In this document: positions 17,083 through 64,000 of the stretch, one piece after another
How positions within the stretch are numbered: position 1 is the first letter of the stretch
Layout of the letters: each line of letters starts with the position of its first letter
The notes under the pieces: generated by a model
The model's input: the letters and a program-made list of their open reading frames with translations, nothing else
The model's database searches: none
Told to the model about the DNA's origin: nothing
Source of the DNA: Anaerolineales bacterium
GTDB taxonomy: Bacteria > Chloroflexota > Anaerolineae > Anaerolineales > UBA4823
Direction of reading: 5' to 3'
Assembly: GCA_035341015.1 (NCBI GenBank)
Contig: DAOQUL010000003.1
Location: forward strand, 10,350 to 74,349
Length of the DNA stretch: 64,000 bases
Made by a program: the position numbers and the translations under genes

Positions 17083-20000
17083 TCAATATGGCTTGGGGTT
17101 GGCCTCTTGGATGGTGTCGTGCACAGTGATGACTCCGGTACTGCCATCCAGGTCAAAGACGTACCACCAGTCGCCGGTGCCTGAGGTGGGAACGTAGTAA
17201 TTGGCGATCAGGCCGGTTGAGTCATACACCTGCACGTGCGCGCCGGAGTTTGTGATCAGGCCATCGCCGGCGTATTTGTAAACAGCATAGCGATAGTTGC
17301 CCTCGAAGCGTTCTTTGATGGTGATCGTCTCGGGTCCATAGCTGTATTGGTCATCGATGTCCAGGCAGGCGTAGGGGCTGGCAGAACAGTTCCCTTTGTT
17401 GGAAAAATAGATGTGGTAAGGATGACTGGGGGGCAGCCAAAGGTGGGAATCGATGTCTCTGGGGTTAGCGCCCCAGGTAAGGACGATGCGCATCTCACCC
17501 TGGGCCAGGGTGGGCGACAGAATATAGTTAAGCGACGAGGCCTGGTTGATGACGATAATAACCGTCTGGTCGAGGGAGAAATAACCCTCTGCAGAAGCGC
17601 GCAGGGTTTGCGAACCGGGAAGAAGTCCTGAAAGGGTGTAATTCCCGGCGCCATCGGTTGTGGTGCAGGGGCTGCCGCCGGCATGACACACGCTGGCCCC
17701 GCCAATGCCCATCCCGGTAACGGCGCTGGTGACTTGCCCGGTAACGCTGCCGTATTGGACGGTGGAGACAAGATCAAAATCCAGGTTGAAATCATTGTTA
17801 TCGAGCAAGATCGTTTCTTCTTTGTCATAATACCCCCCTGCAGAAGCTCGCAAGGTTTGTTCTCCAATCGGAACCGTATTAAATACATAAAACCCAGCGG
17901 AATCTGTGGTGGCGCACGGGCCAGCAGGCAAAATGCATACGGTGGCTCCTCCAATGCCAGTGTGTGTCGCGGCATCATAGACGCTTCCGGTAATATCGCC
18001 ATATCTATTGATATTCCGGAAAATGATCGGTAAGTGAGCATAATAGGCGAAGACGGTTACGGAAGTTATATCCTTTTGCGTGCCGGCGGAGTTTGTGGCA
18101 GTGAGGGTGGCATCATATATGCTGGGGTGGGCGTAGGTGTGGGTGACGGTAATCCCGCTGGCGCTAGTTCCATCCCCAAAATCCCAGGAATAAGTAACCC
18201 CGGTGCCGCCGGCAAGGGTGGCGGAGAAGGTGGTGGTTTGACCGATGAGGGTGGGGCTGTCGTTGCTGGCTTGCAGGCCGGTGATCGGCACGTCAGCAAC
18301 ATATTGGTTGAACCCATACCCTGTGAGGTTGACAGAGTTTTGCGCCTGACCACTGAGCCACCTCCAGCCGGCGGTGGTGTAGGTATGGGTCACGGTAGAA
18401 CCGCTGCCAGTGGCGCCATCGCCAAAATCCCAGGTATAGATAACATTGGTGCCCTGGATAACGGTGGCTGTGAAATGGGCGGGTACGCCAACCTGGATAG
18501 GGGAATCTCCCTGAATGTGGTACCCGTAGATCGGTATGTCGCTGATGGCAACGATCAGCGAGTTGCTTATTGCAGCCCGGTAATTAACCGCGTTGATGGT
18601 GAGGGTGTAAACGCCTGGCGTACCCCAGGTGAAGAAAGCGGTGTCGCTCAAGCCGGCAGTGTGGGTGACGGTCTGTTGGCCTTCGCTCAGCCAGGTGTAC
18701 GTGATTGGAAGCGTTGCGGAACTTGGGCTAATGACAGCGGTGAAGGTGTATGGATTGCCTGCCAGGCCAGTCTCGGGCCCGCTGATTCTGAGCTCAGACG
18801 GCCCTATGCTGAAGATATTCGTGCCGGCCTGGGCCGATGCCTGGTATAGGGCGGGATTGGTGAGCGAGGTGACGGTGATATTCACGGTGTCGGTCAGATA
18901 CCAGGGGGCATGCAGGGGGATGAAGACAGAAACAGTGAAGGTGGCGGCATCGTCCGGCGCCAGCGGGCCAAGTTGGAGGGCAGAAAGCTCGCTATGCCAG
19001 GCAGATGGCCCGAGGGCCAGGGCATAGGTATCGGTAAGAGGGGACCAATTGTAGAACTTCAGGCTGTATTCTGTGACGACACCGGGCACGCCAGAGCCGG
19101 ATTGTGTGCGTGGGTAGAGGTAAACACCGGCCGGGAATTCATATGCCCCCATATCACAAGTTACCTCGCCATCTTGATCGCTGTCAAGTGGGCGGGGAAC
19201 ACCGCGCTGGTCGGTCGGGGGGCAGGCAGCGTTATCGCCGGCCTCGACGGCGGGACTGTTCAAGGGCAAGGCATGTGTCCAGGTAGGGCCGCCGTTATCA
19301 TGCAAAGGCTCCAACAGCGGATCAATGCCTGGCAGGGAGTGGTTGGCGGGAGCGAAGCCGCAGGAGGTGTCTGAAGACAAGTTGTACCCACCATCGGTGA
19401 GGTTACCGGCGCAGTCGCTGCTCGGTGAATTGGCGGCGACGATGGTATTGGTCAAAACCATACTGCCGCCAGTGTGATTGATCCCGCTGCCGGTGGTGGC
19501 GCTGTTGGAAAAGATCGTGGTGTTCACAATGGTGACTGTGCCATCCTGGTTGTTGATCCCGCCTCCGTACGTGGCGCTGTTGCCAGAAAAGGTGCTGTTG
19601 AGAACGGCAAGGGCGGCCAGGTGGTTGTTAACCGCTCCGCCTGAGATGGAATGGTTGTCCCAAAAGGTGCTGTTGGCGATGTTCAACAGGCCGCCGGAGT
19701 GATAGACGGCCCCGCCCGCACCGTTGTTCGGCGAGGTGTTGTTAGAGAAGGTGGTGTTGAGGATGGTCAGGGAGCCGCTGTTGGCCACCCCACCTGCCCC
19801 GTTATACAGCGTATAGTTGCCCGAGAAAACGTTGTTGTCAATGGTCATCGTCCCCTGATTGCGAATGGCGCCGCCGCAGGAGGCTTGCCCCTTGCAGTAA
19901 CCATCAGTATTGTTGCCGATGAAGGTGTTGTTGATAAGTGTCATTGGGCCATCGCTGTAAATGGCTCCCCCACCTTCAGTGGCTGTGTTAGAGATAAAGA

Positions 20001-20754
20001 TGCTGTCTTGGATGATAAACGAAGGGGCGGTGGATAAGAAAACAGCACCGCTGCCCATATTCACCGTGATGCGGTTGTTCAAAAAAGTGCTGCGTTGGAT
20101 GATGGTCACACTTTCGTGAACGGCTACACCAGCGCTGTAACCGGTGGCAGTATTTCCTTCAAAGCGGCTATCCAAGATGGTCAGGCTCCCGCCTTCGCTA
20201 TAGATGGCTCCCCCATATGGAAAGTAGAAGGCAATAACGCCATTCCTGATAAATGCACACTGTCTGATGGTCAAATTGCCACCACCATTATACAGACCAG
20301 CGCCGGTAGTGTTTTGAGGGGTGCGGCCATTCGCAACGGTCAACCCCTCAAGCCTCAGGTCGATTGCTCCATCCACAAAAAAGACGCGCGTGTTACCGCC
20401 CCCGCTGACGGCGATTTTCTCACCACCGTTAATTACCAGGGGGCCGCCGCTGGCCAGGAGATCGAGCTGGCTGCCTACCGTAACCGTGCCCGCCACGCTA
20501 AAGGTGATGGTGTCGGTGAGCACCATGCCGGCTGGGCAGGCGTCTACGGCGGCATTGGTGTTGGCGGCCTGGATGGCCTCGCGCAAGGCGCAGTCGCCAT
20601 CGGTGTTGAGCTCGTCAGCCAGGGTGTTAACGAGGATGGCTGTTTGAGGGGATGTAGTCCTGGCATGGGCAGAGGCCTCTATGACGGAGAGAAAGGCAGA
20701 CAACGCTAACAGCGCGGTCAACAGGGGGATCAAGAGTCGCAGTGCCTTGTTCAT
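17083..20754 (-). CDS. Large secreted protein: signal peptide, CSLREA-type N-terminal motif, right-handed beta-helix repeats, 3 PKD-like domains, 2 carboxypeptidase-regulatory-like domains, C-terminal beta domain
   Basis: Signal peptide at aa 1-30. [14 protein letters not shown] at aa 52-65. Asn/Gly-rich beta-helix turns run from about aa 90 to 470. PKD signatures [20 protein letters not shown] and [20 protein letters not shown]. Two GxxVC...TTDxxGxYxxxxxxxGxQTLRASAxGY units. The C-terminal 135 aa carry DIDSHLW...[13 protein letters not shown]. Confidence 0.85.
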
Positions 20755-44419: not shown

Positions 44420-44431
<12 letters not shown>

Positions 44432-47353
44432 AACGGGAAGGGCATCGACCGCCTCGCTCAGCGAGGCGGTTTTGCCGCTTTGAATGGCGGCTGTTTCTTC
44501 GTCCGATGGCTGAGGAGCCAGTTCGGCAAGCAAGGCCTGGGCGGCCTGCTGTTCTTCAGCGTATTCTCCGGGGAAATTCGCCACCAGCCCCAAGAGCTTA
44601 AGCGCAAGCAAGCGCTGCCCTTTGTGATGCAGAAGGCAGGCGATCTCGGTCAGGGCGGGCAGGATCCAGCGGTGGGTGTTGGCGTTAACCGCCTGGTGCA
44701 GGCTTTTTAGATAACTGTTATAAGCATCCGTATTATTGCTCAGGGCGGCGTAAACCCGTCCCTGGGAGAAAGTGGCATAGGTAATGCCAAAGCTGTCGCC
44801 GATTTTGTTAAAGAGCTGAATGGCTTCTTTTAGCAGGTCGCGGGCTTTGACGTGATCCTGGGTCTGCATCGCCACGCTGGCAAGATCAGCCAGGCTGTAC
44901 GCCACGCTGCGCGGCTCTCCAATCTCACGTCCAACCTGAACGCTTTCTTCCAGGTAGCGGCGGGATTCTGCCAGGTTGCCGGTCAAAACCTCAACACTGC
45001 CCAGGTGGTTGAGCACATAGGCCAGGCGGGCCTGGGAGCCAATCTTCTTGTACATCTCGCAGGCTTCGATAAAATAGGGGTGGGCCTCGAGGGGATGGCC
45101 CTGGTCGCGGATGATCACGCCCAGGCGATCGAGGCAGCCAGCCACCTGGCTGGGGCTGCCAACCTGGCGGTAAATGGCGAGGGCCTGCCGGGTAAGTTCG
45201 GCTGCTTGCGTGTAGTCACCGGAGGCCCAGTGGATCGTGCCAAGCTGCGACAGGGCATCGGCGCTGCTTTTCTGGTCGTCTTCCTGGCGAGCGCGTTCCA
45301 GGCATTCTTGCGCCAGCCTGCCGGTCTCGACATAGTCGCCGCGAAGCCAGGTCACGCGGGCCAGCTCAAGCTGGATCAAGGTAATGTCGCCTGGATCGCC
45401 ATACTGGCGGGCCAATTCCAGGCTGCGTTCGGCAGTGGTCAAGGCTTCGTCCAGCCGCCCCAGGTCGATGTAGTTGTGGGCCTGGTTGGCCAGCAGGTGC
45501 AGCAGCAGTTGGTAATGGCTGGGCGGCCAGGGATCGGGCTGCTCCTCCAGCTTTTTGAGGGCAGTTTCAAAAGCCAGCAAGCCTTCTTGATGCCAACCGC
45601 GCAGTGAGAAAAAGAAGTGCAGGCAGGCCTGAGATTGGGCAATCACCTCGAACTGAGATTGATCGACGGCCCACTTCCAGGCGGCGCGTAAATCCTGGAT
45701 GCGTTCGCCGATCTCGTTAACGGCCTGGACTTGCTCTTGCCCCTGGATGCGCTCCAGGCGCTCTGCCAGGAAGGCGGCGTGATAATGACCGTGGCGCATC
45801 TGCACCCCGATCTCTTCATCGGGATGGGCGCTCAGTTTTTCGGCGGCATATTGGCGCAGCAGGCTGTGCATTTCATACAATTTGGCGTTGCTGCGGCGGA
45901 TGAGCGATTTATCGAGCAGGGCGGTAAATAGCTGCAAGGAGGTTTGGGCCACTGCCTGGACGGCTTTCCAGTCAAAGGGCCCCTGGAAGACTGCCAGGCG
46001 GCAGAAAGCCTGCCGCTCGGGCTCGGTGAGCAGGTTCCAGGAATAATCGCAGACAGCGCGCATGCTGCGGTGCCGCTCGGGGTGGTCGCGCATGGTGGTG
46101 CTGAGGAGTTCGGAGCTGATCGTTAGCTGGTCGGCAATATCCTGGCAGGTGAAGACGCGCACCCAGGCCGAGGCCAGTTCAAGGCCCAGGGGAATCCCCT
46201 CCACCAATTGGCAGATGCGGGTGATGTGGATGCGGTCTTCGGCATTGGGCGCAAAGGCGGGATCGGTGCGGCGGGCGTTCTGCAAGAACAGCTTGACGGC
46301 ACTGAAATCTTCCCAACCGGCGGCCTGGATGTCGGACGGGTAGCGCAGGCCGGTGATCTCGATGATGGTTTCGGCGCGCAGATTCAGGCGCTCACGAGAG
46401 GTGGCGAGGATTTTGACCCTGGGGGCGGTTTGCAAGATCTCAGACACCAGCTCGGCGCCATCCAAGATGTGCTCAAAGTTATCCATTACCAGTAGGATCT
46501 GTTTTTCGCGCAGGTAATTGAGCAATTGGATGCGGGGCACCTCGCGGGTGTGGAAAGAGTAATGCAGGGCTTCGGCAATGGCCGGAACCAGGAATTCGCT
46601 GGCGTTGAGGGGGGCCAGGGCCACAAAATGAGCACCGTGGCCGAAGTCATCCAGCATTTCAGCGGCGGCTTGCAGGGCCAGGCGCGTCTTGCCCATGCCG
46701 CCCGGCCCAACCAGGGTAAGCAAGCGGCAGGCGGGGTCTTCGAGGCGGGTGGTGACCTCAGCCAGCTCGGCCACGCGGCCCACGAAGGGGCTGGTTTGGG
46801 CGGGCAGGTTGTGGGGCTTGCCAGATAATGAGCGCAGGGCGGGGAATGTTTTGACCGGCAGGTCGGGGTGTTTGAGTTCGAAGACTTGCTGGGGTTCGCT
46901 GAGGTCTTTGAGCTGGTGCAGCCCGTGATCCAAAAGCTGGGCGCCGGGGGGCAGGGTGCAGCCCTGCACCACGGGCGGGGTGAGCAAGATCTGCCCGCCC
47001 CAGCCAACCGCCAGCAGGCGCACGGTGCGGTTGATCTCCAGGCCGTGGTAGTCATCGCCGCGCTGCTCTACCTGCCCGGCGTGCAAGACGGTGCGCAGGC
47101 GCAGCTCGCCAATCCCGCCCCAAGGCTGGTGAGCAACCTGCCGCTGGATCTCAAGGGCACATCCGATTGGATCCCCCCCTTCAAAGGCTGCAAAGACCCC
47201 GTCGCCGGTGTTTTTGACCACGCGGCCGCCATGTTGGCTGACCAACCTGTCCAGCAGGGCGTCGTGACGGCGCAAAGCCGCCAGCATTTCGGGGCCATGT
47301 TGTTCCATCAAACGGGTTGAGCCTTCGATGTCGGTAAAAAGAAATACAGTCAT
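44420..47353 (-). CDS. Class III adenylyl/guanylyl cyclase - STAND (NB-ARC-like) ATPase - TPR protein (977 aa)
   Basis: Cyclase motifs [20 protein letters not shown] and [10 protein letters not shown]. Walker A GPGGMGKT (nt 46685-46708) and Walker [10 protein letters not shown]. At least 8 TPR-like units from about aa 560. No C-terminal HTH domain. Confidence 0.85.
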
Positions 47354-53647: not shown

Positions 53648-54865
53648 TTATGATTTCTTTTTTCGGGTCAAGATGTATGCCAGGCCGGCGGCCGCGGCAG
53701 CCAGCACCGTCAGGCCAACGGCAGCCTGGGTGACGGTCTTGGGCTGCATGCCGGGCATGGCCACTTGACCATCGCCGTAGTTTTTGAAGAGGCGACCCCA
53801 GGGGGTCTTGAGCGCTTCTTCGACGCGCCGGCGGCCCACGAAAGGATACCAATAGACGTTGTGATAGAAGTTGCTGGCAAAGTAAGACCAGGGTACGAGT
53901 GGGCTTTGCAGGAGGATCTTTTCAAAGGGTTTGAGCGGGCCGTGGTAGATCAACTTCTGGCCGCGGCTGGCAAAGGTATCTTCCTGGACGAAACCCCAGG
54001 GCTGTTCCTGCTCGATATCATAGCCAAGGATCTCGATCTGGCTGGGGTCGCCGATGCCCAGGCCCATCTCGTGCGCCTGGCGGATGAAGCGGATGCCCAG
54101 CGGGTCAAAGCCCTGCAGCCTGGCTGAGACGGCGTCGATGGCGACCTGGTCAGCAGAGGCCAGCAGGATGTTCTTCTCGTGCCAGTGCATGGCGCGCGGG
54201 CCGGCGCCATCGCCGGCAAAGGTGCCATCCATGAGGGCGAAGAGGCCGGGATGGATATCTTGCTGGATCATGAGCAAATCTACCAGGGTATCGTGAATGA
54301 CGGCATGCGTCCAGTGGCGGTTGCGGTGTAAGAGTCCGCCGAAGGCGTTCTTCATGGCACCGGTGATGGTGGTGAAGACATGGGTTTTGACGGTGGGGAG
54401 CTGGATCATGTTCATGCCCACCAGGGTCTTGGGGATGAAGACGCCCTGGGGATACACTTTATCCAATACCAAGAAGGGGCGCTTGGGCTGGTATTCGACC
54501 CATTCAAAATCCTGGTTATAGAGGTAGAGACAGGGCACGGCGTGCTTGTCGGTGACGAAGCGGTGCTTGTTGTTACGCTCGCCGTCGGCTGTATCGACCA
54601 CCACGGTGTCGTTATGTACGCCCACCAGGTCGGTGTAGCCGGCCTTTTTCAAAGCCAGGATAGCGCCTTCGATCTGCCAGGGGGTAGAAGAGCAGGCCGG
54701 GTACCAGGTTTGCCAGGAGATGTTGATCTTCAAGCCGGTGCGCACATTTTTGGGCAGGCTGTTTTCTACGCCTGCCAGGCGCATCACTTTCTCGACATCC
54801 TCCAAGACGGTCTCGGGGGTGGTCTTGAGCACGGCGACTTTGCCTTTGCCGGGGAAATCGGTCAT
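53648..54865 (-). CDS. DUF362-domain protein with C-terminal membrane anchor
   Basis: The N-terminal region (VAVLKT.PETVLEDV..VM.LAG...L......LKINISW) matches DUF362 as I recall it. C-terminal TM segment AAVGLTVLAAAAAGLAYIL followed by KKKS. GGAGG Shine-Dalgarno sequence before ATG 54865. Confidence 0.65.
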   Translation of the reverse strand: MTDFPGKGKVAVLKTTPETVLEDVEKVMRLAGVENSLPKNVRTGLKINISWQTWYPACSSTPWQIEGAILALKKAGYTDLVGVHNDTVVVDTADGERNNKHRFVTDKHAVPCLYLYNQDFEWVEYQPKRPFLVLDKVYPQGVFIPKTLVGMNMIQLPTVKTHVFTTITGAMKNAFGGLLHRNRHWTHAVIHDTLVDLLMIQQDIHPGLFALMDGTFAGDGAGPRAMHWHEKNILLASADQVAIDAVSARLQGFDPLGIRFIRQAHEMGLGIGDPSQIEILGYDIEQEQPWGFVQEDTFASRGQKLIYHGPLKPFEKILLQSPLVPWSYFASNFYHNVYWYPFVGRRRVEEALKTPWGRLFKNYGDGQVAMPGMQPKTVTQAAVGLTVLAAAAAGLAYILTRKKKS

Positions 54866-54984
54866 GTTGGCCTCCGGAGATGGGGGCGGTGCATACAAGG
54901 AACAAGGCACCCCTCCCAATATAGATTTTGCAGACCAATTGTATCAAAATTTGAACCAAAAAGGAGGTTTGGCGGTGCTAATGC

Positions 54985-55023
54985 TTGACAAATCGAAACC
55001 GACAAGTATATACTGAACCTATG
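54985..55023 (+). promoter_or_regulatory. Candidate leaderless promoter of the SPFH-like cluster
   Basis: TTGACA (54985-54990), an 18-nt spacer, TATACT (55009-55014), then 6 nt to ATG (55021-55023). Confidence 0.4.
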
Positions 55024-56700
55024 CCGGATGTTGGATTGTTAGCCACAGAGCCCTGGTATCGCCGCCCGCGTCTTTGGCGTTGGGTGGTCAGTTTGGCGTT
55101 CTTAGGGTTGGCAATCTACTGGTTCCGGTATGAGATTGGCATTGTTCTTCAGTTATTGGGGGATATTGCCCTGAACCGCCCGATCGTGCACGTTTCGGCG
55201 GGGCAGCGCGAAGCGATTGCGATTGTCTTGGTGACCCTGGCGGCGGGGATTGGGTTCTTCTTGCTCAGCCTGTGGTTTGTGGGCCAGTTTGTCTTGCCGG
55301 TGCGCACGGCCGATCAGCGTTGGAAGCTGTTCACCCGCCTGGTGCGCTTTGTGTTCAAGATCCATGGCCCGGCGATCTTCATCAAAGAGGGCGTTCAGAT
55401 CGCCAAAGCAGAAGAGCTGGAACGCAGCCTGCCGGGCGTGGCAATGGTGGACCTGACCAGCGCGGTAGCGCTGGAGAAATCCTGGGTGCCGCTTTCGATT
55501 GGCGGTGCGCCCAGGAGGGGGATCTTGAGGGCAGCCAGCCAGGGGGCAGAAGAGGCCTTGAATTTGCATCGATCGGGCCGCAGCCAGCCAATGGTGCGGG
55601 TGGCAGGGCCGGGAGTGGTGTTCACCGAAATGGGTGAGAAGGTGCGCGGTTCTGCCAGCCTGCGGCGGCATTTTCGGGTTTCGGGCACCGTGACGGCCTC
55701 AACGCGCGATGGTTTCCAGATCCAATCACCTGTCTTTACGCTGTTCACGTTGGGAGATGCCCCCGATAACCATAAGGTCGGTTATTACGGCGGCACCGGC
55801 CCTGAACATTTGAAGGTCACCAAGCTGGGCGACAAGGAAAAAATTATCGAGGATGGTGATTTCCAAGAGGAGTTTGACGAGCAGGACCGGGCTGAGATCC
55901 ACCAATTTGCCAGCCGTTACAGCTCGCAGCCCTTTGAGCCGGTTTGGAGCCCGCCGGAGCCGAAGTTGTCATCGAAACCCCCGTATGTCTTTGATGAGGA
56001 ACGGGTTTTTGGGGCGATCTATTCTCGGGCGCGCACGGCCCAAGAAGACCAGGTTGAGGTGTGGAGCGAGCTGCCTTTGAAGGTGGCCATCGAAATCTTC
56101 CGCGATATGCTGTCGCTGAAGACCTATGCCGAATTGTACGAGCCAGAGAGCGACAATTTCCCATTCTTCAAAGAGTTCAGGCCGACATTTGCCCGGCGGA
56201 TGCGCAACCAGGGTGTATTGACCTTCCAGCTTGTGCGCCGTAAGGATGGACGGCCGTTTGAGAAAGGGATGACCTGGAAACCGAACGAGATCGAAACCTC
56301 TCCTATTCAGAAGCTGCGCACCTCTAAGGTGCTGCGGGACCGCGGGATCAAGGTGTTGGTAGCGGGCTTTCCTGAGCTGACCCCCCTGCACAAGGGGGTG
56401 CGAGAGACCCTGGTGAATCACTGGGGCGCCGCCTGGCAGCGGGATGCGTTGAAGAAAGAGAGCGAGTACGTGCAGTTGGCAGGGCAAGAACGTGCTCATA
56501 TCGTGGCCAGTGCACAGGGAGAAATCATTGACAGCCTGATGGAAGCTTACCGGGCATCTGGCTCGACGCGGGATGCGGTGGTGTGGCAAATTTTCCAGGT
56601 GCTGGATTCGATGGTCTCAGACCCTGAGACGCGGCCGCTGCTGCCGGCTGAGACTTTGGACTTCTTGTGGGATTTACGGCAGTATCTGCTGCCGGAGTGA
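55021..56700 (+). CDS. Hairpin-anchored membrane protein with SPFH/band-7-like cytoplasmic domain (paralog 1 of 4)
   Basis: Two hydrophobic helices, then FVLPVRT (nt 55288-55302), GPGVVF...LRR...TASTRDGFQIQ (TRDG at nt 55702-55713), and later LPLKVAIEIFRDMLS..TYAELYE. I recognise no family beyond this SPFH-like pattern. Confidence 0.6.
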   Translation: MPDVGLLATEPWYRRPRLWRWVVSLAFLGLAIYWFRYEIGIVLQLLGDIALNRPIVHVSAGQREAIAIVLVTLAAGIGFFLLSLWFVGQFVLPVRTADQRWKLFTRLVRFVFKIHGPAIFIKEGVQIAKAEELERSLPGVAMVDLTSAVALEKSWVPLSIGGAPRRGILRAASQGAEEALNLHRSGRSQPMVRVAGPGVVFTEMGEKVRGSASLRRHFRVSGTVTASTRDGFQIQSPVFTLFTLGDAPDNHKVGYYGGTGPEHLKVTKLGDKEKIIEDGDFQEEFDEQDRAEIHQFASRYSSQPFEPVWSPPEPKLSSKPPYVFDEERVFGAIYSRARTAQEDQVEVWSELPLKVAIEIFRDMLSLKTYAELYEPESDNFPFFKEFRPTFARRMRNQGVLTFQLVRRKDGRPFEKGMTWKPNEIETSPIQKLRTSKVLRDRGIKVLVAGFPELTPLHKGVRETLVNHWGAAWQRDALKKESEYVQLAGQERAHIVASAQGEIIDSLMEAYRASGSTRDAVVWQIFQVLDSMVSDPETRPLLPAETLDFLWDLRQYLLPE

Positions 56701-56719
56701 TGAGAAGCGGTGGTGTAGG

Positions 56720-57955
56720 ATGCTGATCTGGCGTTGGGTGCAAAAACAATTCTGGCGTTTTGGGAACTTCATCGAGGGTTTCCTGGTAGGGGATAACGCC
56801 TGGGGTTTACTGCGCCTGATGGTGCTGGGGTTTGTCAGCCTGGCCTTTATGGTGGTGTGCGGGCTGCTCTTTGAGCGCGACCACCTGGTGGGGATGTTGC
56901 GCTACCTGGTGATCCCGGCTGGGGCGTTTGTGGCGGCACTATTGTGGGGGACGTGTTATTTGCAGGATATTAATGAAATGAAACGTTTCTCGCGGGCGCT
57001 GCAGTACATGGTCTCCTCGATGTTTGGCTTGTCGTACCCATACCTGACGATCGACCGGGGCAAAAAACAGGTGCAAGTGGGCGAAGAGAACCTGCTGGAT
57101 ATCATTGGCGGGCCGGGCTGGGTGAACATTCGCCCGGGGAACGTGGTTCTGTTCGAGCAGTTGAATAACCCCTCCAGCGTGCGAGCCGAGGGCATGCACT
57201 TCATCTCGCGATTCGAGACGATCAAAGAGATCGCCAACCTGGAAGACCAGCACGGCTATATCGACCAGATCAAGGCGGTGACCAAAGACGGCGTGGTGGT
57301 GTGGGCGCGCGATATCCACTACCGCTACCGGCTGTGGTCAAACCGTAAGCTGGGTGGTGAGAATATTCGCTCGACGCACGTGCCATATCCTTATTCGGTG
57401 CAGGCGGTGCGCAACATGACGTATTCGCGGGCGGTGCGCAGCGATGGTTTGACAGCCTGGCCGGCGGCAGTACGCATCATCTTCGAAGGCGAGATCCAGA
57501 ATTACATCCGCCAGCATACCATTGACCAGGTGACTGCGCCGCGCACCCCTGATGCCGACCCGCGCGAGGATATTCACCGCATCTACCGCTCGGCCGCGGT
57601 GCGGGCGTCGTTTAAGAATGCGGGCACGCAGCTCTTGTGGTATGGCATTGGCAACCTGGAACCCGAAAACGAGAAGGTGAGCCAACAACGCGTGGACACC
57701 TGGGCGGCGGATTGGAATGGCAAGGCAAGCGTGGTGCGGGCATCGGGCGAGGCGGCCCTGGAAGTGGCGAGAGAAAAGGCGCGCGCCCAGGCCCAGGCCG
57801 AGATCTTGAAGGGGATTGCGAAATCTTTGGGTGATATTACCGCCGCGGGCGCAGATCAAGACCGGAATATCAAAGAAGTCTTTCTGTTCCGGTTGGCGCA
57901 AGTGTTGGAAACGATCAAGGATAACCGGCGAGGCCTGCCCAGCGGTGAACAATGA
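56720..57955 (+). CDS. Hairpin-anchored SPFH/band-7-like membrane protein (paralog 2 of 4; the most canonical SPFH pattern)
   Basis: Two N-terminal hydrophobic helices. EGMHFISRFETIKEIANLEDQ.....IKAVTKDGVVVWARDIHYRYRL (TKDG at nt 57281-57292), and a C-terminal Ala/Glu/Gln-rich helix EAALEVAREKARAQAQAEILKGIA. Confidence 0.65.
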   Translation: MLIWRWVQKQFWRFGNFIEGFLVGDNAWGLLRLMVLGFVSLAFMVVCGLLFERDHLVGMLRYLVIPAGAFVAALLWGTCYLQDINEMKRFSRALQYMVSSMFGLSYPYLTIDRGKKQVQVGEENLLDIIGGPGWVNIRPGNVVLFEQLNNPSSVRAEGMHFISRFETIKEIANLEDQHGYIDQIKAVTKDGVVVWARDIHYRYRLWSNRKLGGENIRSTHVPYPYSVQAVRNMTYSRAVRSDGLTAWPAAVRIIFEGEIQNYIRQHTIDQVTAPRTPDADPREDIHRIYRSAAVRASFKNAGTQLLWYGIGNLEPENEKVSQQRVDTWAADWNGKASVVRASGEAALEVAREKARAQAQAEILKGIAKSLGDITAAGADQDRNIKEVFLFRLAQVLETIKDNRRGLPSGEQ

Positions 57956-59040
57956 TCGATTTTGCGCAGGCCCTGGGGTGGTTGAATAAATTCGATCGCT
58001 CGCACTTGAGACCTGGGACGGAAATCCGCTTATCTCAGGTGAGCGATGGAACAACTCCGCTGGATGTGCGCGACCAGACCGCGGCCGAGATTGTGGGGGA
58101 TGCAGAGGGGATCGTTGATGAATGCGAACGGGCCGAAATCTACGTCCAAATGGGGGCTTACTGGTTTCAACGCGTAGAGCTGCCCCAGGCGATGGAATGC
58201 CTGAAGCAGGCGGTGGATATCTACGCCGGGCATACGCGCCACTTGCAACGCCAGGGGCTGGCTCATTGGATGATGGGGATCGTCCTTGAGCGCTTGGGGG
58301 TTAATCACGAGTGTTATCTCCAGCGATACAATGCAATCAAGGCCTTTGCGAAGCTGGTGGAGGATGCCAAAGACGCCAAGGATCCCAAGGATGCTAAGAA
58401 TCCCAAGAACCCCAAAGATCCCAAGAACGCCAAAGACGCCAAGGACGACAGGCAAAAGCTCAAGGCGGAATGGTACTGCGAGACGCTGGATCTGTTCAAG
58501 ATCTACACCGCGGTGATGCCAGAAGACGCCCGCGCCTGGCTGACCGAGCCATTTGAAGGGCAGCCAGGGGGGCAGTTGAAGGCGCAAACGGCTGCCCTGT
58601 GTGAGCAGGTGATCAAGCTGGCAAAAACACCCAACCAAAGGGCGCAGGCGGACGAGGCTATTCGCCAATTGTTGGAGGCCGCCAGCACCCGCCCGCCAGG
58701 GGCCGAAAGGGGCGAGGCTTACCTGGAAAGCGGGCTGGCGAAGTACCAGATGCGGGATTTTGAGGCGGCGCGCTATTGCTTGAGGATGTCTTTCCCGCAG
58801 TACCTGGCGCCCAGTTACCCGTATGCGGTGGCTCATTGGATGTTGGGGAATATCGAGTGGCAAGATGGCCAAAAAGCGCCGGCCTTTACGTATTGGCAGC
58901 GCAGTATCGAGATCATGAATGAGCTGGTCTACAAGGCCGAAACTGGCAAGACAGAGAAGATCCGCAAACGGCAGGCTGCATTCTTGAAAGAAAAGAGAGA
59001 TTTGATGAGGCGGGTGGTAAGTCACATGGCAGCCAATTAG
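57952..59040 (+). CDS. Soluble TPR-like helical-repeat protein with an internal (K-D/N-A/P)x9 low-complexity insert
   Basis: ATGA overlap with the previous gene. There are several 34-aa-like units (AEIYVQMGAYWFQRVELPQAMECLKQAV; GEAYLESGLAKYQMRDFEAARYCL; AVAHWMLGNIEWQDGQKAPAFTYWQRSIEI). No TM segment or signal peptide. Confidence 0.65.
   Translation: MIDFAQALGWLNKFDRSHLRPGTEIRLSQVSDGTTPLDVRDQTAAEIVGDAEGIVDECERAEIYVQMGAYWFQRVELPQAMECLKQAVDIYAGHTRHLQRQGLAHWMMGIVLERLGVNHECYLQRYNAIKAFAKLVEDAKDAKDPKDAKNPKNPKDPKNAKDAKDDRQKLKAEWYCETLDLFKIYTAVMPEDARAWLTEPFEGQPGGQLKAQTAALCEQVIKLAKTPNQRAQADEAIRQLLEAASTRPPGAERGEAYLESGLAKYQMRDFEAARYCLRMSFPQYLAPSYPYAVAHWMLGNIEWQDGQKAPAFTYWQRSIEIMNELVYKAETGKTEKIRKRQAAFLKEKRDLMRRVVSHMAAN
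58363..58443 (+). repeat. Nine tandem 9-bp units (GAY/AAY-SCN-AAR) encoding DAK-DAK-DPK-DAK-NPK-NPK-DPK-NAK-DAK
   Basis: I read this directly from the sequence; it is in frame with CDS 57952-59040. Confidence 0.9.
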
Positions 59041-59175
59041 GATTCGAATGCTTTGGCAGGGTGGATTGAGGGTTTATTAACCCAGCATTTATCTACTGGT
59101 GTTTTTGGGCGGCTGGCTGTACAATAATATAGCCAATCAATTGTGGGCAATACGAGATAATCGATCATACCATTT

Positions 59176-61710
59176 ATGGGTCTTCATAAGCATCCAAAGC
59201 TCCAAACGCTGTTGGTATTGGTACTTGGATTATTATTGTACCTGGTGTTGATGCGCGGCCAGGGAACGGTAAAATCCCTGGTGTTTGGGGCAGAATATGC
59301 CTACATTGCAGCGGGGGGTTCTGACGGAGGGGTATTGGTGCTGGAGTTGGCCTTCTCTACCCCCACCGCAAGCCCCACGCCCAAAATGACGGCTGGCCCT
59401 GCTACGCCCACGCCCAGCCCCACCCCGCAAGGCTGGGTGGAGCCAACGCCGACATCGACCCTGCCGCCGCACAGCACACCTACCTCGCTGCCCATCGATT
59501 GGACGTTTGAAAGCTCGAGGGTGGTCAAGCGCTGGGATACATTGGGAGAGGGCCTGGCGCTTGAGAAGATCGGTTGGGAAGACAAAGATTACCTGTTCGT
59601 GGCAGAGGGGGCCTATGGCCTGAAGCTGTGGGACGTGACTGAGCTCAAGAATCCAATTGAGCTCGAGGTGCGCGACCAGGTGCCCCATGCGCGGGCGGTG
59701 GTGGTATTCGACGGGCGGATGTTTGTGGCATCTGAGCGCTATGGGGTGTTTACCTGGCTGGTGGAAGGCGACCCTGAGATGGCGGCTTTCCAGCCGGCGC
59801 GGGGCCAGCCGGTAATCCCGGCGCGAGATGCGCGCGACATCTTTGTGTACAAGTACCTGCGAGAGGTAGAGACCAGCGCCGCCGAGGATGAGACGCAGGA
59901 GGCGGGTGGAGGGCGCAGGCCCCAGATCGTAGAGACCATTTACCAGGTGTGCGTGGCAGCCGGGCGCGAGGGAGTGCTGGTGGTTGAAATGAACGAAAGC
60001 CTGGTGCCGGTCTCGCAGGAGATCATTTCGACCGGCAATCGACGCGCCCTGAGTGTGTGGGCCGACGGCTCCAAGGATATTTTGTATATTGCGGCCGAAG
60101 ATGGCGGCGTGCTGGTGTACGACATTTTCTCTAAGATGGAGAAGTTGGCCGAGGTGGATACGAATGGACCGGCCATAGATGTGTTGTTTCGAGATGGGTA
60201 CCTGTACGTTGCTGCTGGGCCGGTGGGCCTGCAGGTCTACAAAGAGAATCCCGGGCATACGTATGAGTTGGTCGCTGTGCTAGACACCCCCGGGAGGGCG
60301 GTGGGGCTGGCATCTTCGAATTTCCATAATTTTATATTTGTTGCAGACGAGTCTGGCGGGGTGCGTTTTATCAATGTGACCGACCCCAAAAATCCAATCG
60401 ATGAGACCGATTACCAGCTCGATTGGGGCGAGGCGCCGTTTGAGTTTTTGGCCAGCTCGGCCATTTCGGGAGATGGCTTGAACAAGCAGGCCAAGCTGAC
60501 GGTGGGAAATATGACGGTGGATTTGACCATCGCCTCGATCGCCCTGGTGATGAGCCTGGTGGTCTTCGCGGGTTTTGTGCTGCCAGTGCACACGCCGTGG
60601 CAGCGCCTGCAAACGATCTGGCGGATGATCGTGCACTGGTTCAAGCCTGACCATGCATGGTTTATTCGCAACGGGCAAGTGGATGCGCATGACCTGGCAT
60701 ATGGTGAGCGCGGGCCGGGGGTGGTGGTGTTGGATGCGGCCAGCGCGGCGGTGTTCAAGCATTTGAACGACACGCCGCGCCCGCGAGGCCCGGGTGTGGT
60801 TTTTACACGCAACGAAGAACGGCTGTACGAGCTGTTGGATCTGCGGCGCAAGGCACTTTGGTTGGGGCCGCACCTGGATGAGAGCCCCTTTGAAGTACGA
60901 GGAGAGGGCGAATTGCAGGCCGATTACCGGGGGCGCTGTTACCGCCGAGAGCAAACCAAGGCCATGACGCGCGACGGTGTGGAAGTGGCGCCTACCTTGC
61001 GAGTGGTCTATTCGTTGGATGGTAAGGCGGTGGAAGATGGCACGCAGTTCGATTACGATGCCGAAGCGGTTCTCAAGGTGGCGGACGGCGACCACCCCCA
61101 GGCGCGCTACTGCCGGCGGAGCGGTAAGATCGTTTCGACGCGCGAGGAAATAATCACTTGTGCGGCGACCACCCTGTGGCAAGACGGCCTGGCCCGCTTT
61201 AAGCTGGCGGAGTTGTTTGGTGAGGTTGACCCCGGGGGGCACCCCGGCCCGGCCGGCCAGCCGAACGGTTTGAATGCCATTGTCGAAGGGATGCGGCAGC
61301 GCCTGACACAAGCTGAGCTGCCGGGGGCGGGGGGCGGGTTGGAACCCAATCCCATATACCAGGAATTCCAGGCCCGCGGCCTGCAGGTGCATGCCGTGAG
61401 CCTGGAAGCCGTTCACCTGGCTGAAGATGACCGCTTGAGCTTGCTGCAGAACTGGCATGCAAGCTGGTCAAAGCAATTAGAACTGGATGCACAGCGCTTG
61501 CAGCAGTGTGAGCAGGAGCGGGCGCTGAGCGATTATGCCCTGGCGGCAGCCAGGCCGCTGAAGGAACGTCTGAAGCGGGTGATCGCGCCGGTGTATTTGA
61601 AAGAGACGCTGCTGCTGATGCTGCGCGGCACACTGGGGCTTTGCCCGGCAGGTTCGAGCGCCAGCCGAGGGGTGGGGCAGATGATCGAATGGGTGGAGAA
61701 TAACCTGTGA
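59176..61710 (+). CDS. Membrane protein: TM1 - extracytoplasmic LVIVD-type beta-propeller (interrupted by a PT-rich linker) - TM2 - cytoplasmic SPFH-like domain (paralog 3 of 4)
   Basis: Seven or more repeats of the form Y(L/I)(F/Y)(V/I)A(A/E).. GG(V/L).V(Y/L)(D/E) (YAYIAAGGSDGGVLVLEL, YLFVAEGAYGLKLWDV, LYIAAEDGGVLVYDI, YLYVAAGPVGLQVYK, FIFVADESGGVRFINV). TM2 at aa 446-470, then FVLPVHT (nt 60574-60588). GPGVVF...DLRR...AMTRDGVEV (TRDG at nt 60967-60978). Confidence 0.65.
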   Translation: MGLHKHPKLQTLLVLVLGLLLYLVLMRGQGTVKSLVFGAEYAYIAAGGSDGGVLVLELAFSTPTASPTPKMTAGPATPTPSPTPQGWVEPTPTSTLPPHSTPTSLPIDWTFESSRVVKRWDTLGEGLALEKIGWEDKDYLFVAEGAYGLKLWDVTELKNPIELEVRDQVPHARAVVVFDGRMFVASERYGVFTWLVEGDPEMAAFQPARGQPVIPARDARDIFVYKYLREVETSAAEDETQEAGGGRRPQIVETIYQVCVAAGREGVLVVEMNESLVPVSQEIISTGNRRALSVWADGSKDILYIAAEDGGVLVYDIFSKMEKLAEVDTNGPAIDVLFRDGYLYVAAGPVGLQVYKENPGHTYELVAVLDTPGRAVGLASSNFHNFIFVADESGGVRFINVTDPKNPIDETDYQLDWGEAPFEFLASSAISGDGLNKQAKLTVGNMTVDLTIASIALVMSLVVFAGFVLPVHTPWQRLQTIWRMIVHWFKPDHAWFIRNGQVDAHDLAYGERGPGVVVLDAASAAVFKHLNDTPRPRGPGVVFTRNEERLYELLDLRRKALWLGPHLDESPFEVRGEGELQADYRGRCYRREQTKAMTRDGVEVAPTLRVVYSLDGKAVEDGTQFDYDAEAVLKVADGDHPQARYCRRSGKIVSTREEIITCAATTLWQDGLARFKLAELFGEVDPGGHPGPAGQPNGLNAIVEGMRQRLTQAELPGAGGGLEPNPIYQEFQARGLQVHAVSLEAVHLAEDDRLSLLQNWHASWSKQLELDAQRLQQCEQERALSDYALAAARPLKERLKRVIAPVYLKETLLLMLRGTLGLCPAGSSASRGVGQMIEWVENNL

Positions 61711-63383
61711 GCCAGGGTGCAGGCGGCTCCAGCGGGAAGACTTCGCCGGGCGGGGGCTCGACGCGCCAGCGCGCCGCTGATCTGGTGGCGCGCCTGAGAG
61801 CAGCCTGGAAGGTGAACAGCAAACGCAGCCGGGCTTTCTTCCACGCGGGGCCTGTGCCGCGCCTGATCGTGTACATCTTGCTGGTGGTGGGGATCTTCCT
61901 TGGCTTTGTGCTGTTTGGGCGGCAGATGGCCAATTGGGCCAGCAACGCGGTGATCAATACCATCAACTGCGCGCGACACCCCGTGCGCTGTTTTCGGGAT
62001 ATTGTTGGTGTTCCACCGCCCCCGCCTACGCCCACCCCGGTTCCGGGCCCAACCCAGCCCCCGCCCCCCACGCCCTTGCCAGAGCCAAGACCCCGGGCCT
62101 GGTCTGAAAGCACTGAGAATACGATCCAAACCTGGACGCGGAACGATGTCTTGCGGCACCTTTTGATCTTGGGGCTGACCATATGGGGGGCCTCGAGGCT
62201 GGCGGGGATCTATTTTGGTGACCTGCACCATATTGAAGATTTTCGGTTCACGTCGCAGTTGTTACGCCGGACGATATTGGCACGTGCTTTTGGCAAGATC
62301 GTGGTGCAGGCCGGGCAGATCGAGGCAAAGGACCAGAAAGGCCATAACTTAGAGCGCTTGCTGGGGGCGGGCATCCCGGCGGCGGTGCAGGTTGCGCCCG
62401 ACAGCTGCCTGGTCGTTGAGCTGATGAACGGCGAGCCGGTGTTTATTGGTCCCACAGGGGGCAAACCGGCGCTGCTGCGGGCCTTTAGCCGCCTGCGGCG
62501 GGCAGTAGACCTGCGCGATCAAGAAGTGACCCTGACTGTTAACGGCATTGCGCGCGACGGCCTGCCGGTGGCAGCCAAAGATGTGGCTTTGTGCTTCAGC
62601 GTGGCGCGTGCTGGGCAGGCCGCCACGAACCAACAGCCCTATCCCTTTGACGAGCAGGCGCTGCGCAACCTGGTTTATCGCACCTGCCCCGAACTGGCTT
62701 CAGCGAATGGGAAGGTGGTTTCACGGGTGCAGTCTACCTTGCCCCCCAGCAACCAGGGCAAAGAGCTTTACCTGGCGATGGTTGAGCAGATCGAGGTGGC
62801 CTTCAGAGAGTTCATCAGCCGGTGCGCGGCGGCCGATCTTGTGCCATTTACGGCGCCGGGGGCGGATGCAGGTGGTGGCGCAGCACCCACGGCCCATAAT
62901 TCGAGCGGGCTGCAAAACCCGATCCAGGCCTTTGTTGAGGCCTTCAACGCGCAAGCTTTGATGAGCGGCATCGAGCTGGCATGGCTGGGCAAGGGGGAGT
63001 GGGTTCTGCCGGGCGAGATCGTGGTGGGCGGCGGGGAAGACGCTCGCAAAAGCAAGAAGTACGTGGTGCCGCTGGCAGATTGGCAGCGGAGCGTTGAGAA
63101 CTGGCAGCGGCGAAAGGCCCTGCTTGGCGACCAGATGGACCTTGACCGGCATACGGGTGAGCTGTTGGCCCTGGTGCGGCAGGTGCCGTTGGGGGTGCAG
63201 CCTCCGGCAGCGCCCCCCGGAGGTCCGCGGCGCGCGTATCAAATTGGCAAAGCGCTAATTCAGGCATATCGTGATAAACTAGATGATGCGTTGAAAAGCT
63301 ACCAGCAAGCAGGGCAAACCCCGCCCTCAGAGCTGGTGGATGTGATTGAACACCTGAACCAATTGATCGAGCGGAAGCCTTGA
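61707..63383 (+). CDS. Hairpin-anchored membrane protein with a Pro-rich/Cys-containing outer loop and SPFH-like cytoplasmic domain (paralog 4 of 4)
   Basis: The GTG start overlaps the previous stop (GTGA at 61707-61710). TM segments at about aa 53-71 and 151-170. The loop carries NCARHPVRCF and PPPPPTPTPVPGPTQPPPPTP. AVDLRDQEVTLTVNGIARDGLPV (ARDG at nt 62550-62561). Confidence 0.6.
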   Translation: MSQGAGGSSGKTSPGGGSTRQRAADLVARLRAAWKVNSKRSRAFFHAGPVPRLIVYILLVVGIFLGFVLFGRQMANWASNAVINTINCARHPVRCFRDIVGVPPPPPTPTPVPGPTQPPPPTPLPEPRPRAWSESTENTIQTWTRNDVLRHLLILGLTIWGASRLAGIYFGDLHHIEDFRFTSQLLRRTILARAFGKIVVQAGQIEAKDQKGHNLERLLGAGIPAAVQVAPDSCLVVELMNGEPVFIGPTGGKPALLRAFSRLRRAVDLRDQEVTLTVNGIARDGLPVAAKDVALCFSVARAGQAATNQQPYPFDEQALRNLVYRTCPELASANGKVVSRVQSTLPPSNQGKELYLAMVEQIEVAFREFISRCAAADLVPFTAPGADAGGGAAPTAHNSSGLQNPIQAFVEAFNAQALMSGIELAWLGKGEWVLPGEIVVGGGEDARKSKKYVVPLADWQRSVENWQRRKALLGDQMDLDRHTGELLALVRQVPLGVQPPAAPPGGPRRAYQIGKALIQAYRDKLDDALKSYQQAGQTPPSELVDVIEHLNQLIERKP

Positions 63384-63391
63384 GGAGCGCT

Positions 63392-64000
63392 ATGACGGAA
63401 GAATTAGTCTACAACCCTGAAAAGCCGGTGCTGGTGATCGGTGCGGCAGGCGTGGACCTGGTGGGCAGGTTGAAAGGGGGCTTGTTGCCCTCGACCTCGA
63501 ACCCGGCCCGGATCCGGTCCTCTTTTGGCGGGGTTGGGCGCAACGTGGCCGAAAACCTGGCCCGTCTTGGGCAGGCAGTGACGCTTTTGACGGCTGTGGG
63601 GCAAGACCCGGCCGGCGACCAACTGCTGGAAGATGCGGCTGAAGCGGGGGTTGACGTGTCGCATGTGCTGCGCAGCTCCGAACAGCCCACCGGCACTTAC
63701 CTGGCGGTGATCAACCCAGAGGGGGGCTTGCAGTTTGGGCTGGATGATATGCGGGCCATTGCGGCGCTTTCGGCAGAGCATGTGCGCTTGCATGCAGACT
63801 TGTTTGCGCAGGCGTCTTTGGTGTTCATGGATGCCAACTTGCCCAAAGAGACCCTGCGGGCGGCGATGGCGCTGGCGCGCAAAGCGGGCTTGCCCATCTG
63901 TGCAGACCCCACCTCGCAGACCCTGGCGGCGCGCCTGAAGCCTTACCTGCCGCGCCTGCGCCTGGTGGCGCCAAATGCGGCTGAGGCGGCAATCTTGTGC
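63392..64000 (+). CDS. PfkB-family (ribokinase-like) carbohydrate/nucleoside kinase; 3' end outside window
   Basis: GAGGAG Shine-Dalgarno sequence, then ATG 63392. VLVIGAAGVDLVG...SFGGVGRNVAENLARLG is typical of the PfkB N-terminus. The frame is open to the window end. Confidence 0.8.
   Translation, partial: MTEELVYNPEKPVLVIGAAGVDLVGRLKGGLLPSTSNPARIRSSFGGVGRNVAENLARLGQAVTLLTAVGQDPAGDQLLEDAAEAGVDVSHVLRSSEQPTGTYLAVINPEGGLQFGLDDMRAIAALSAEHVRLHADLFAQASLVFMDANLPKETLRAAMALARKAGLPICADPTSQTLAARLKPYLPRLRLVAPNAAEAAILC

Follow-up and report, generated by a model that had tools for sequence, protein, structure and literature searches.

Five tightly packed genes in the genome of an Anaerolineales bacterium raise the question of whether four related membrane proteins and a soluble partner work as one system, and if so of what kind. 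The genes, G1 to G5, lie co-directionally on the plus strand at 55021-63383 of the 64,000-nt stretch of contig DAOQUL010000003.1 (assembly GCA_035341015.1) that was analysed here and that we call the window. An earlier note, made from the sequence alone, had read four of the products as paralogous, hairpin-anchored SPFH-like proteins and the fifth as a TPR protein, and had proposed that together they form an undescribed membrane system. Our analysis gives good support to the view that the four membrane proteins are very divergent members of the SPFH/Band-7 superfamily, by structural models of G1 and G2 and Band_7 matches in their relatives, and by profile comparison for G4 and G5. In the reading that we favour, to which we assign a probability of roughly 60%, two A/B pairs of these scaffolds form HflK/HflC-like hetero-oligomeric rings that face the cytoplasm and work with the TPR partner.

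SPFH fold and predicted membrane hairpins

The gene order in the window is A1-B1-C-A2-B2. G1 (A1; 55021-56700, 559 aa) encodes an enlarged, hairpin-anchored SPFH protein without an ectodomain; G2 (B1; 56720-57955, 411 aa) encodes a hairpin-anchored SPFH protein; and G3 (C; 57952-59040, 362 aa) encodes a soluble TPR-like protein. G4 (A2; 59176-61710, 844 aa) specifies a first transmembrane helix (TM1), a probable LVIVD-type propeller ectodomain, a second transmembrane helix (TM2) and an SPFH-like domain, and G5 (B2; 61707-63383, 558 aa, GTG start) a further hairpin-anchored SPFH-like protein. Intergenic gaps of 19 nt (G1/G2) and 135 nt (G3/G4) are found, and the other two junctions are 4-nt overlaps, ATGA at 57952-57955 (G2/G3), which suggests translational coupling, and GTGA at 61707-61710 (G4/G5), which likewise suggests coupling. 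The linkage, gaps and overlaps are exactly as the earlier note had given them.

To establish the fold of the membrane proteins, profile searches were combined with structure prediction. The Pfam Band_7 profile (PF01145) matched G2 at E = 0.0069, with 16.9 bits against a cutoff of 23.6, and did not match G1, G4 or G5. Family alignments were built for G1 (alignment A1: G1 and 41 of 75 homologues with E ≤ 3e-39, 42 sequences) and for G2 (alignment A2: the B1 family, 43 members); at E ≤ 0.01 the same profile matched 40 of the 43 B1 family members (best 7.9e-9) and 8 of the 42 A1 family members. AlphaFold2 monomer models of G1 and G2 were obtained with a mean predicted local distance difference test score (pLDDT) of 82.4 and 84.7, respectively, and compared with the PDB using Foldseek. 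For the G2 model all 50 matches listed are SPFH proteins with E ≤ 1e-3, led by HflK/C (7vhq_E, 6.4e-10) and stomatin (9oh9, 1.8e-9) and including erlin, prohibitin, flotillin, QmcA and the major vault protein. The G1 model retrieved the same set, again with SPFH proteins in all 50 matches listed, and HflK/C (7vhq_G, E = 1e-5) at the top. Against the isolated SPFH domains 3bk6, 4fvf and 4fvj, the two models reached target TM-scores of 0.59-0.75. In both models the alpha/beta core is followed by a long helix of 54-57 residues (aa 458-511 in G1, aa 318-374 in G2); it is this post-core helix that builds the wall of the solved SPFH cages. In G2 it is rich in Ala, Glu and Gln, as had been noticed from the sequence. 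Together with the profile alignments of G4 and G5 described below, these data bear out the SPFH/Band-7 assignment of the earlier note.

Hydropathy analysis detected two clear hydrophobic helices in each of G2 and G4, whereas G1 and G5 each have one strong and one weaker helix; the predicted pair of helices in every membrane protein thus stands outright for G2 and G4, and for G1 and G5 with the support of the model or the alignment. The G1 hairpin (55066-55293) comprises helices at aa 16-34 and aa 60-91, joined by a short loop that includes a helix at aa 36-50, according to the model and hydropathy. The loops between the helices form a graded series, as proposed: about 25 aa in G1, 4 aa in G2, a Pro-rich segment in G5 (61920-62147, aa 72-147) and a very large domain in G4. 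The G5 loop, which is probably external, contains Cys88 and Cys95, both invariant in a three-sequence alignment (A4). The G4 loop (59254-60522, aa 27-449, 423 aa) contains a Pro/Thr linker and at least six putative LVIVD-like blades, recognized by a regular-expression search as at least six YxYVAxxxxGhxhhD repeats. On the LVIVD profile PF08309, G4 itself scores insignificantly (E = 0.42), but its orthologue in locus L005 reaches 42.7 bits against a cutoff of 20.2, and by BLASTP G4 aligns with the LVIVD arrays of long A proteins from other loci with E values down to 2e-11; one such long A1 protein (L001) matches PF08309 at E = 9e-92. The repeats, these alignments and the above-threshold orthologue support the prediction of an LVIVD-type propeller. 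Net charges are +9 at the N-terminus of G5, +5 just after TM2 of G1 and -26 in the G4 loop. Because this positive-inside bias is consistent throughout, we infer that the N-termini and SPFH domains are likely to be cytoplasmic and that the hairpin loops probably lie outside.

The partner protein G3 gave sub-threshold matches to TPR_12, TPR_1 and TPR_2 (best TPR_12, 20.7 bits against a cutoff of 30.1), and its orthologues gave similar ones; it can therefore be called TPR-like, in keeping with the soluble TPR protein envisaged before. The ninefold charged (K/E)(D/N)(A/P) insert that had been noticed in it maps to aa 137-163 (58360-58440, plus strand). In the G3 of the closest relative, L008, residues 140-284 are missing, including this KDAKD insert, so this segment is dispensable or variable. 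The C protein of the UBA6092 lineage (L005:13033-14025) has a weak match to the SNAP family (soluble NSF attachment protein; E = 2.8e-4), which is intriguing given that C lies beside a tandem AAA+ gene elsewhere (see below), and which may reflect only TPR-like helices.

Two A/B pairs and their distribution

Within the window, BLASTP links G2 to G5 (E ~1e-8), G1 to G4 (4e-4) and G1 to G2 (2e-4). Comparison of profiles with hhalign sharpened this picture. The G1 and G2 families align over the whole post-membrane region (326 columns, probability 99.6%, E = 2.8e-24), G4 aligns with the G1 (A1) family over aa 455-770 (probability 98.4%, E = 8.5e-15) and G5 with the G2 (B1) family over aa 147-437 (probability 97.3%, E = 2.7e-11). 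Relative to B-type proteins, the A type has extra inserts, at aa 244-325 and 389-437 of G1. By these alignments, the four membrane genes are two ancient A/B pairs, with G1 and G4 of type A and G2 and G5 of type B, and the single set of four paralogs assumed by the earlier note has to be given up.

Several of the motifs on which that assumption had been built survive. FVLPV lies at 55288-55302 in G1 and at 60574-60588 in G4, and the (T/A)(R/K)DG strand is present as TRDG at 55702-55713 (G1), TKDG at 57281-57292 (G2), TRDG at 60967-60978 (G4) and ARDG at 62550-62561 (G5), all at the positions noted before; this strand lines up across the four proteins and shows little or no variation in either family alignment. 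The proposed GPG-V strand exists, but its copies are out of register: hhalign pairs GPGVVF of G1/G4 with RAEGMHF of G2, and GGPGWV of G2 with LPGVAMV of G1, so that they belong to two successive strands. Similarly, the (S/D)LR(R/D) element holds for G1, G4 and G5, but G2 has LEDQ at this position.

We then asked how these genes are arranged in other genomes. Twenty-two loci, 19 of them distinct, were gathered with 10-kb flanks and their open reading frames typed with hidden Markov models. Every one of the 19 distinct loci has an A gene with a B gene of its own class immediately behind it. A homologue of G3 lies 3′ of B1 in 15 of the 17 loci with A1-B1, and never 3′ of B2. The full order A1-B1-C-A2-B2 was found in only two lineages: that of the window and its closest relative (L008, a 9.9-kb contig from an uncultured Anaerolineaceae bacterium), and UBA6092 (L005, identical to L009), whose proteins are 30-49% identical to those of the window (30% for the G4 orthologue) and whose genes have 4-nt start/stop overlaps at both A1/B1 and A2/B2. 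Whether the five genes travel together, a check that the earlier note had called for, is thus answered in the negative; the conserved units are A1-B1-C and A2-B2, which are juxtaposed in the window.

The two units can occupy the same chromosomal position. A DUF362 gene is found next to the SPFH genes in L001, L003, L005 and L021 as it is in the window, and PfkB and Indigoidine_A genes follow the SPFH genes in L001, L003, L005, L018 and L019, making both conserved synteny anchors. Between them, L001 and L003 carry a giant A1 (about 1440-2080 aa: TM, LVIVD arrays, TM, SPFH) followed by B1-C, and L018 and L019 carry A2-B2 alone; long A1 proteins also occur in L011-L013 and L015. Depending on the locus, then, it is the hairpin loop of A1 or that of A2 that carries the LVIVD propeller. 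No propeller-bearing A was detected within the 10-kb flanks of L006, L007, L014, L020, L021 and L022, or, for A2, of L019. The DUF362/PHP...PfkB/Indigoidine_A synteny is kept in genomes whose proteins are only 30-50% identical, and the module appears to be an envelope component specific to the Anaerolineae lineage and passed on vertically, rather than a mobile system. All loci that carry an organism name come from metagenome-assembled genomes (MAGs) of Anaerolineae/Chloroflexota, and proteins identical to those of the window are on record from an Anaerolineales MAG.

The family is also larger than a quick search suggests. A word-indexed search with G5 returned four proteins; an exhaustive B2 profile search among 1.84 billion cluster representatives (50% clustering) recovered 458 at E ≤ 1e-3, 265 of them at E ≤ 1e-10, and the low first count was a limit of sensitivity and no sign of rarity. 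The sizeable B2 family is annotated only as 'hypothetical protein'.

Comparison with L008 indicates that the two pairs evolve at different rates. Amino-acid identity is 95% for G1, 97% for G2, 87-91% for G3, 78-79% for G4, 73% for G5 and 90% for the PfkB flank, and identity at four-fold degenerate sites is 0.77 (G1), 0.79 (G2), 0.63 (G4), 0.62 (G5) and 0.68 (PfkB). Along 55133-64000, nucleotide identity falls from 91.5% (G1 to early G3) to 78.8% (end of G3 to PfkB). A swap of a G4-G5 cassette was considered as the cause of this drop and is judged less likely, the synonymous identity of G4/G5 (0.62-0.63) being close to that of PfkB. Protein divergence in G4/G5 is 4-8 times faster than in G1/G2 at a similar or somewhat higher synonymous divergence, and the changes are spread along the whole length rather than concentrated in the ectodomain. 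On these substitution patterns, A1 and B1 are under strong constraint and A2 and B2 are fast-changing; faster protein evolution of G4/G5 combined with unusually conserved G1/G2 is a simpler reading than recombination.

In five loci (L006, L007, L014, L020 and L022), a short A1-B1-C unit lies tail to tail with a recurrent trio of genes, all on the minus strand (L006:13958-18038, L007:14336-18884, L014:6880-11551, L020:15165-19836 and L022:13959-18782). One member encodes a SpoVK/CbbX/EccA-type tandem AAA+ ATPase (TIGR02881, E = 2e-150), another a product of about 470 aa without a family match (split into two open reading frames in L020) and the third an NrdG-like radical-SAM protein, which was not detected in L006. 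The outer flanks of these five loci differ from each other. By analogy with HflK/C and FtsH, the association is a hint of a partnership between SPFH and AAA+ proteins.

A proposed hetero-oligomeric cage and its alternatives

Hetero-pairs are the norm in several SPFH systems, among them HflK/C, PHB1/2, flotillin 1/2 and erlin 1/2. Using these as models, we propose that each subunit would be anchored by its two-helix hairpin, with the SPFH domain and the long C-terminal helix in the cytoplasm, and that A and B would alternate in a ring or dome at the inner face of the membrane, thereby enclosing a patch of membrane. One of the A subunits would, through its hairpin loop, set a ring of LVIVD beta-propellers on the outside, where they could bind a ligand in the envelope or beyond it. 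As an adaptor or holder of clients, the TPR protein would dock on the cytoplasmic side; the neighbouring SpoVK/CbbX/EccA-type tandem AAA+ ATPase could be such a client in some genomes, by analogy with HflK/C and FtsH. Hetero-oligomerization and an adaptor role for C are proposals built on the gene arrangements and analogies given above, and the sensing of an extracytoplasmic cue, which the external propellers bring to mind, is speculation.

Several observations weigh against this model. The window proteins fall below the Pfam Band_7 threshold, and G4 and G5 were assigned to SPFH by profile comparison only. A sequence search of the PDB with G2 alone and sequence-profile searches with the G1 and G2 family alignments returned nothing meaningful; only fold comparison linked G1 and G2 to PDB structures, because their sequence similarity is too low for profile detection. 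The AAA+ trio is absent from the 64-kb window. A1-B1-C and A2-B2 are separate in most loci, so that the five genes are not one travelling unit, and the restriction to Anaerolineae rests on few named matches in a shallow taxonomic survey, the genome-locus search having been made with a narrower alignment (A3; 10 loci).

The separate existence of the two units is also what one would expect if the four membrane genes were tandem duplicates with independent roles, forming four homo-oligomeric rings of the stomatin or QmcA kind beside an unrelated G3, their adjacency being a relic of duplication. Many bacteria do have several SPFH paralogs (nine in Pseudomonas aeruginosa; PMC13086221), and the much faster evolution of G4 and G5 than of G1 and G2 would fit such independence. 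However, the strict A-then-B order in 19 of 19 loci, kept between proteins only 30-50% identical, the conserved start/stop overlaps and the position of C 3′ of B1 in 15 of 17 cases are hard to ascribe to duplication history, and the A and B types stay distinct, as would suit obligate partners like HflK and HflC. We therefore regard independent paralogs as unlikely, and retain alternating A/B rings as the better account.

The same rapid divergence of G4 and G5 could instead be the mark of an arms race in A2/B2, if the propeller detected phages or competitors and the SPFH and TPR proteins, with AAA+ in some genomes, triggered a membrane response. Toxin-antitoxin genes upstream in L018, a STAND-like NB-ARC/TPR gene about 8 kb upstream in the window and a weak IteA-type match of the tandem AAA+ protein would be in line with a conflict system. 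Yet the changes in G4/G5 are not focused on the ectodomain, A1 and B1 are highly conserved, and the locus keeps a stable, housekeeping-like synteny across deep divergence; PADLOC gave no credible match, the sole one being a spurious or weak ZorC match for G1 (E = 0.012), and the cluster has neither a nuclease nor a pore-former nor any other effector domain. A defence function consequently seems to us quite improbable. Equally little credence is given to a surface or adhesion apparatus, in which the LVIVD propellers would be the functional part, serving the sheath, cell wall or cell-cell attachment of filamentous Anaerolineae, and the SPFH domains a clustering anchor. The roughly 1000 aa of LVIVD repeats in long A1 proteins, and the fact that either A1 or A2 can carry the propeller, speak for such a role; against it, several loci show no propeller-bearing A in their 10-kb flanks, and conservation is highest in C and in the SPFH part on the cytoplasmic side.

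How, then, would rings of paired A/B subunits compare with known SPFH systems? HflK and HflC have one N-terminal transmembrane helix each and a periplasm-facing SPFH domain. Like the genes described here, HflK/HflC (SPFH3a/3b), which work with FtsH, are an adjacent paralogous pair; they give the top or near-top fold match (7vhq) and have the core and long wall helix, and an AAA+ partnership is conceivable for the module given its tandem AAA+ neighbour in five loci. In contrast to them, the module has two-TM hairpins and a charge bias that points to cytoplasmic SPFH domains, its A subunit carries large inserts and often an LVIVD ectodomain, there is an additional TPR gene, and no FtsH or other protease belongs to the cluster: Pfam and NCBIfam scans found no FtsH/M41 or other protease gene there, and none of the five proteins showed an NfeD domain. 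The earlier note had likewise remarked on the lack of a protease or NfeD gene. The stomatin/NfeD and flotillin/NfeD2 operons (SPFH1, SPFH2 and SPFH5; QmcA-YbbJ, YqiK, FloA/FloT) share with the module a cytoplasmic SPFH domain, an N-terminal hydrophobic or hairpin anchor and an operon with a dedicated partner; they differ in that the module lacks NfeD, has a TPR protein as partner, probably forms an A/B hetero-pair and is predicted to carry an extracytoplasmic domain in its loop. The eukaryotic cages of PHB1/2, flotillin 1/2 and erlin 1/2, also among the top fold matches, have the two-paralog alternating design proposed for the module, but belong to an unrelated lineage, lack an ectodomain and have other partners. 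Duplicated SPFH genes within one operon are known, according to Hinderhofer et al. 2009 (PMC2636767), who also describe SPFH11a/SPFH11b as a small uncharacterised prokaryotic subfamily whose members are always side by side in an operon. Compared by description only, this adjacent pair resembles ours; the accessible portions of that paper mention no Chloroflexi members, TPR protein or propeller for it.

Searches of Pfam, NCBIfam and PADLOC found no curated family that describes the cluster, NCBIfam and PADLOC giving nothing useful for the four membrane proteins, and no account of the module emerged from literature searches that paired SPFH with Chloroflexi, LVIVD, TPR or AAA+. The claim that the system is undescribed is thus sustained, whereas the claim that its design is unmatched is not: pairing of SPFH subunits is a known principle, of which the module is a variant. 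In the best-supported model it would differ from every characterised system in its cytoplasmic SPFH domains on two-TM hairpins, external LVIVD propeller, TPR partner and occurrence, so far, in Anaerolineae only. Recent structures of SPFH cages cover many systems, and what the cages do in bacteria is mostly unclear; to our knowledge, the bulk of each cage solved so far lies on a single side of the membrane. Hairpins, external propellers and a TPR partner would widen the known architectural range of SPFH proteins and provide an opportunity to ask whether SPFH rings can connect the exterior with the cell interior. The module would also give names to 'hypothetical protein' entries in hundreds of sequence clusters and mark an envelope component peculiar to Anaerolineae, filamentous bacteria that abound in digesters and sediments. 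A bolder and rather doubtful extension is a transmembrane coupling machine of Anaerolineae, in which about 24 TM hairpins would rigidly connect an extracellular ring of LVIVD propellers with a cytoplasmic SPFH cage, whose TPR subunit would recruit or gate a SpoVK/CbbX/EccA-type tandem AAA+ remodeller, and in which the fast-evolving A2/B2 pair would provide alternative outer specificities. If true, such a cage would pass information or force across the membrane, going beyond the corralling of a protease.

Flanking genes and further observations

The best promoter-like site in the region, TTGACA-18-TATACT at 54985-55014 (plus strand, 11 of 12 consensus matches), ends 6 nt 5′ of the G1 ATG; so short a spacing points to a leaderless or near-leaderless start of the operon. 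Because of this site, ATG 55021 is preferred over TTG 54985 as the start of G1. A scan for terminators stayed at background level, with none convincing inside the cluster, and an Rfam scan of 54000-64000 gave no match. Upstream lies the divergent DUF362 gene (53648-54919, minus strand; PF04015, E = 9e-20), with its own promoter-like site (54947-54918, 10 of 12 matches) back to back with that of G1. Downstream, a PfkB-family kinase gene (63386-64000, plus strand; PF00294, E = 5e-32) runs off the window.

Among the related loci, the A1 protein at L001:3754-9978 (2074 aa) has, in addition to its LVIVD repeats, a helical insertion of about 430 aa (aa ~1360-1780) in the SPFH-like region, and A-type SPFH domains therefore tolerate very large inserts. 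In L016 (10416-11862) and L017 (10455-11808), B1 is split into two overlapping open reading frames; these loci are on very long contigs of Chloroflexia-labelled MAGs, and the split is probably a frameshift of long-read assembly rather than a sign of a pseudogene. No C gene was detected 3′ of B1 in L016.

Elsewhere in the window, a giant sensor histidine kinase of 2521 aa with eight GAF domains and PAS, HisKA and HATPase_c domains is encoded at 5316-12881 (plus strand), and a 1223-aa, probably secreted protein with beta-helix, PKD and CarboxypepD_reg domains at 17083-20754 (minus strand). The STAND-like protein mentioned above (44420-47353, minus strand, 977 aa) combines a weak cyclase domain with NB-ARC and TPR/MalT-type repeats, and a similar STAND-like gene (978 aa) occupies the matching upstream synteny position in L005. 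When the window (1-64000) is divided into 32 2-kb bins, all but one have a positive GC skew (31 of 32), so that the whole stretch appears to lie on one replichore.

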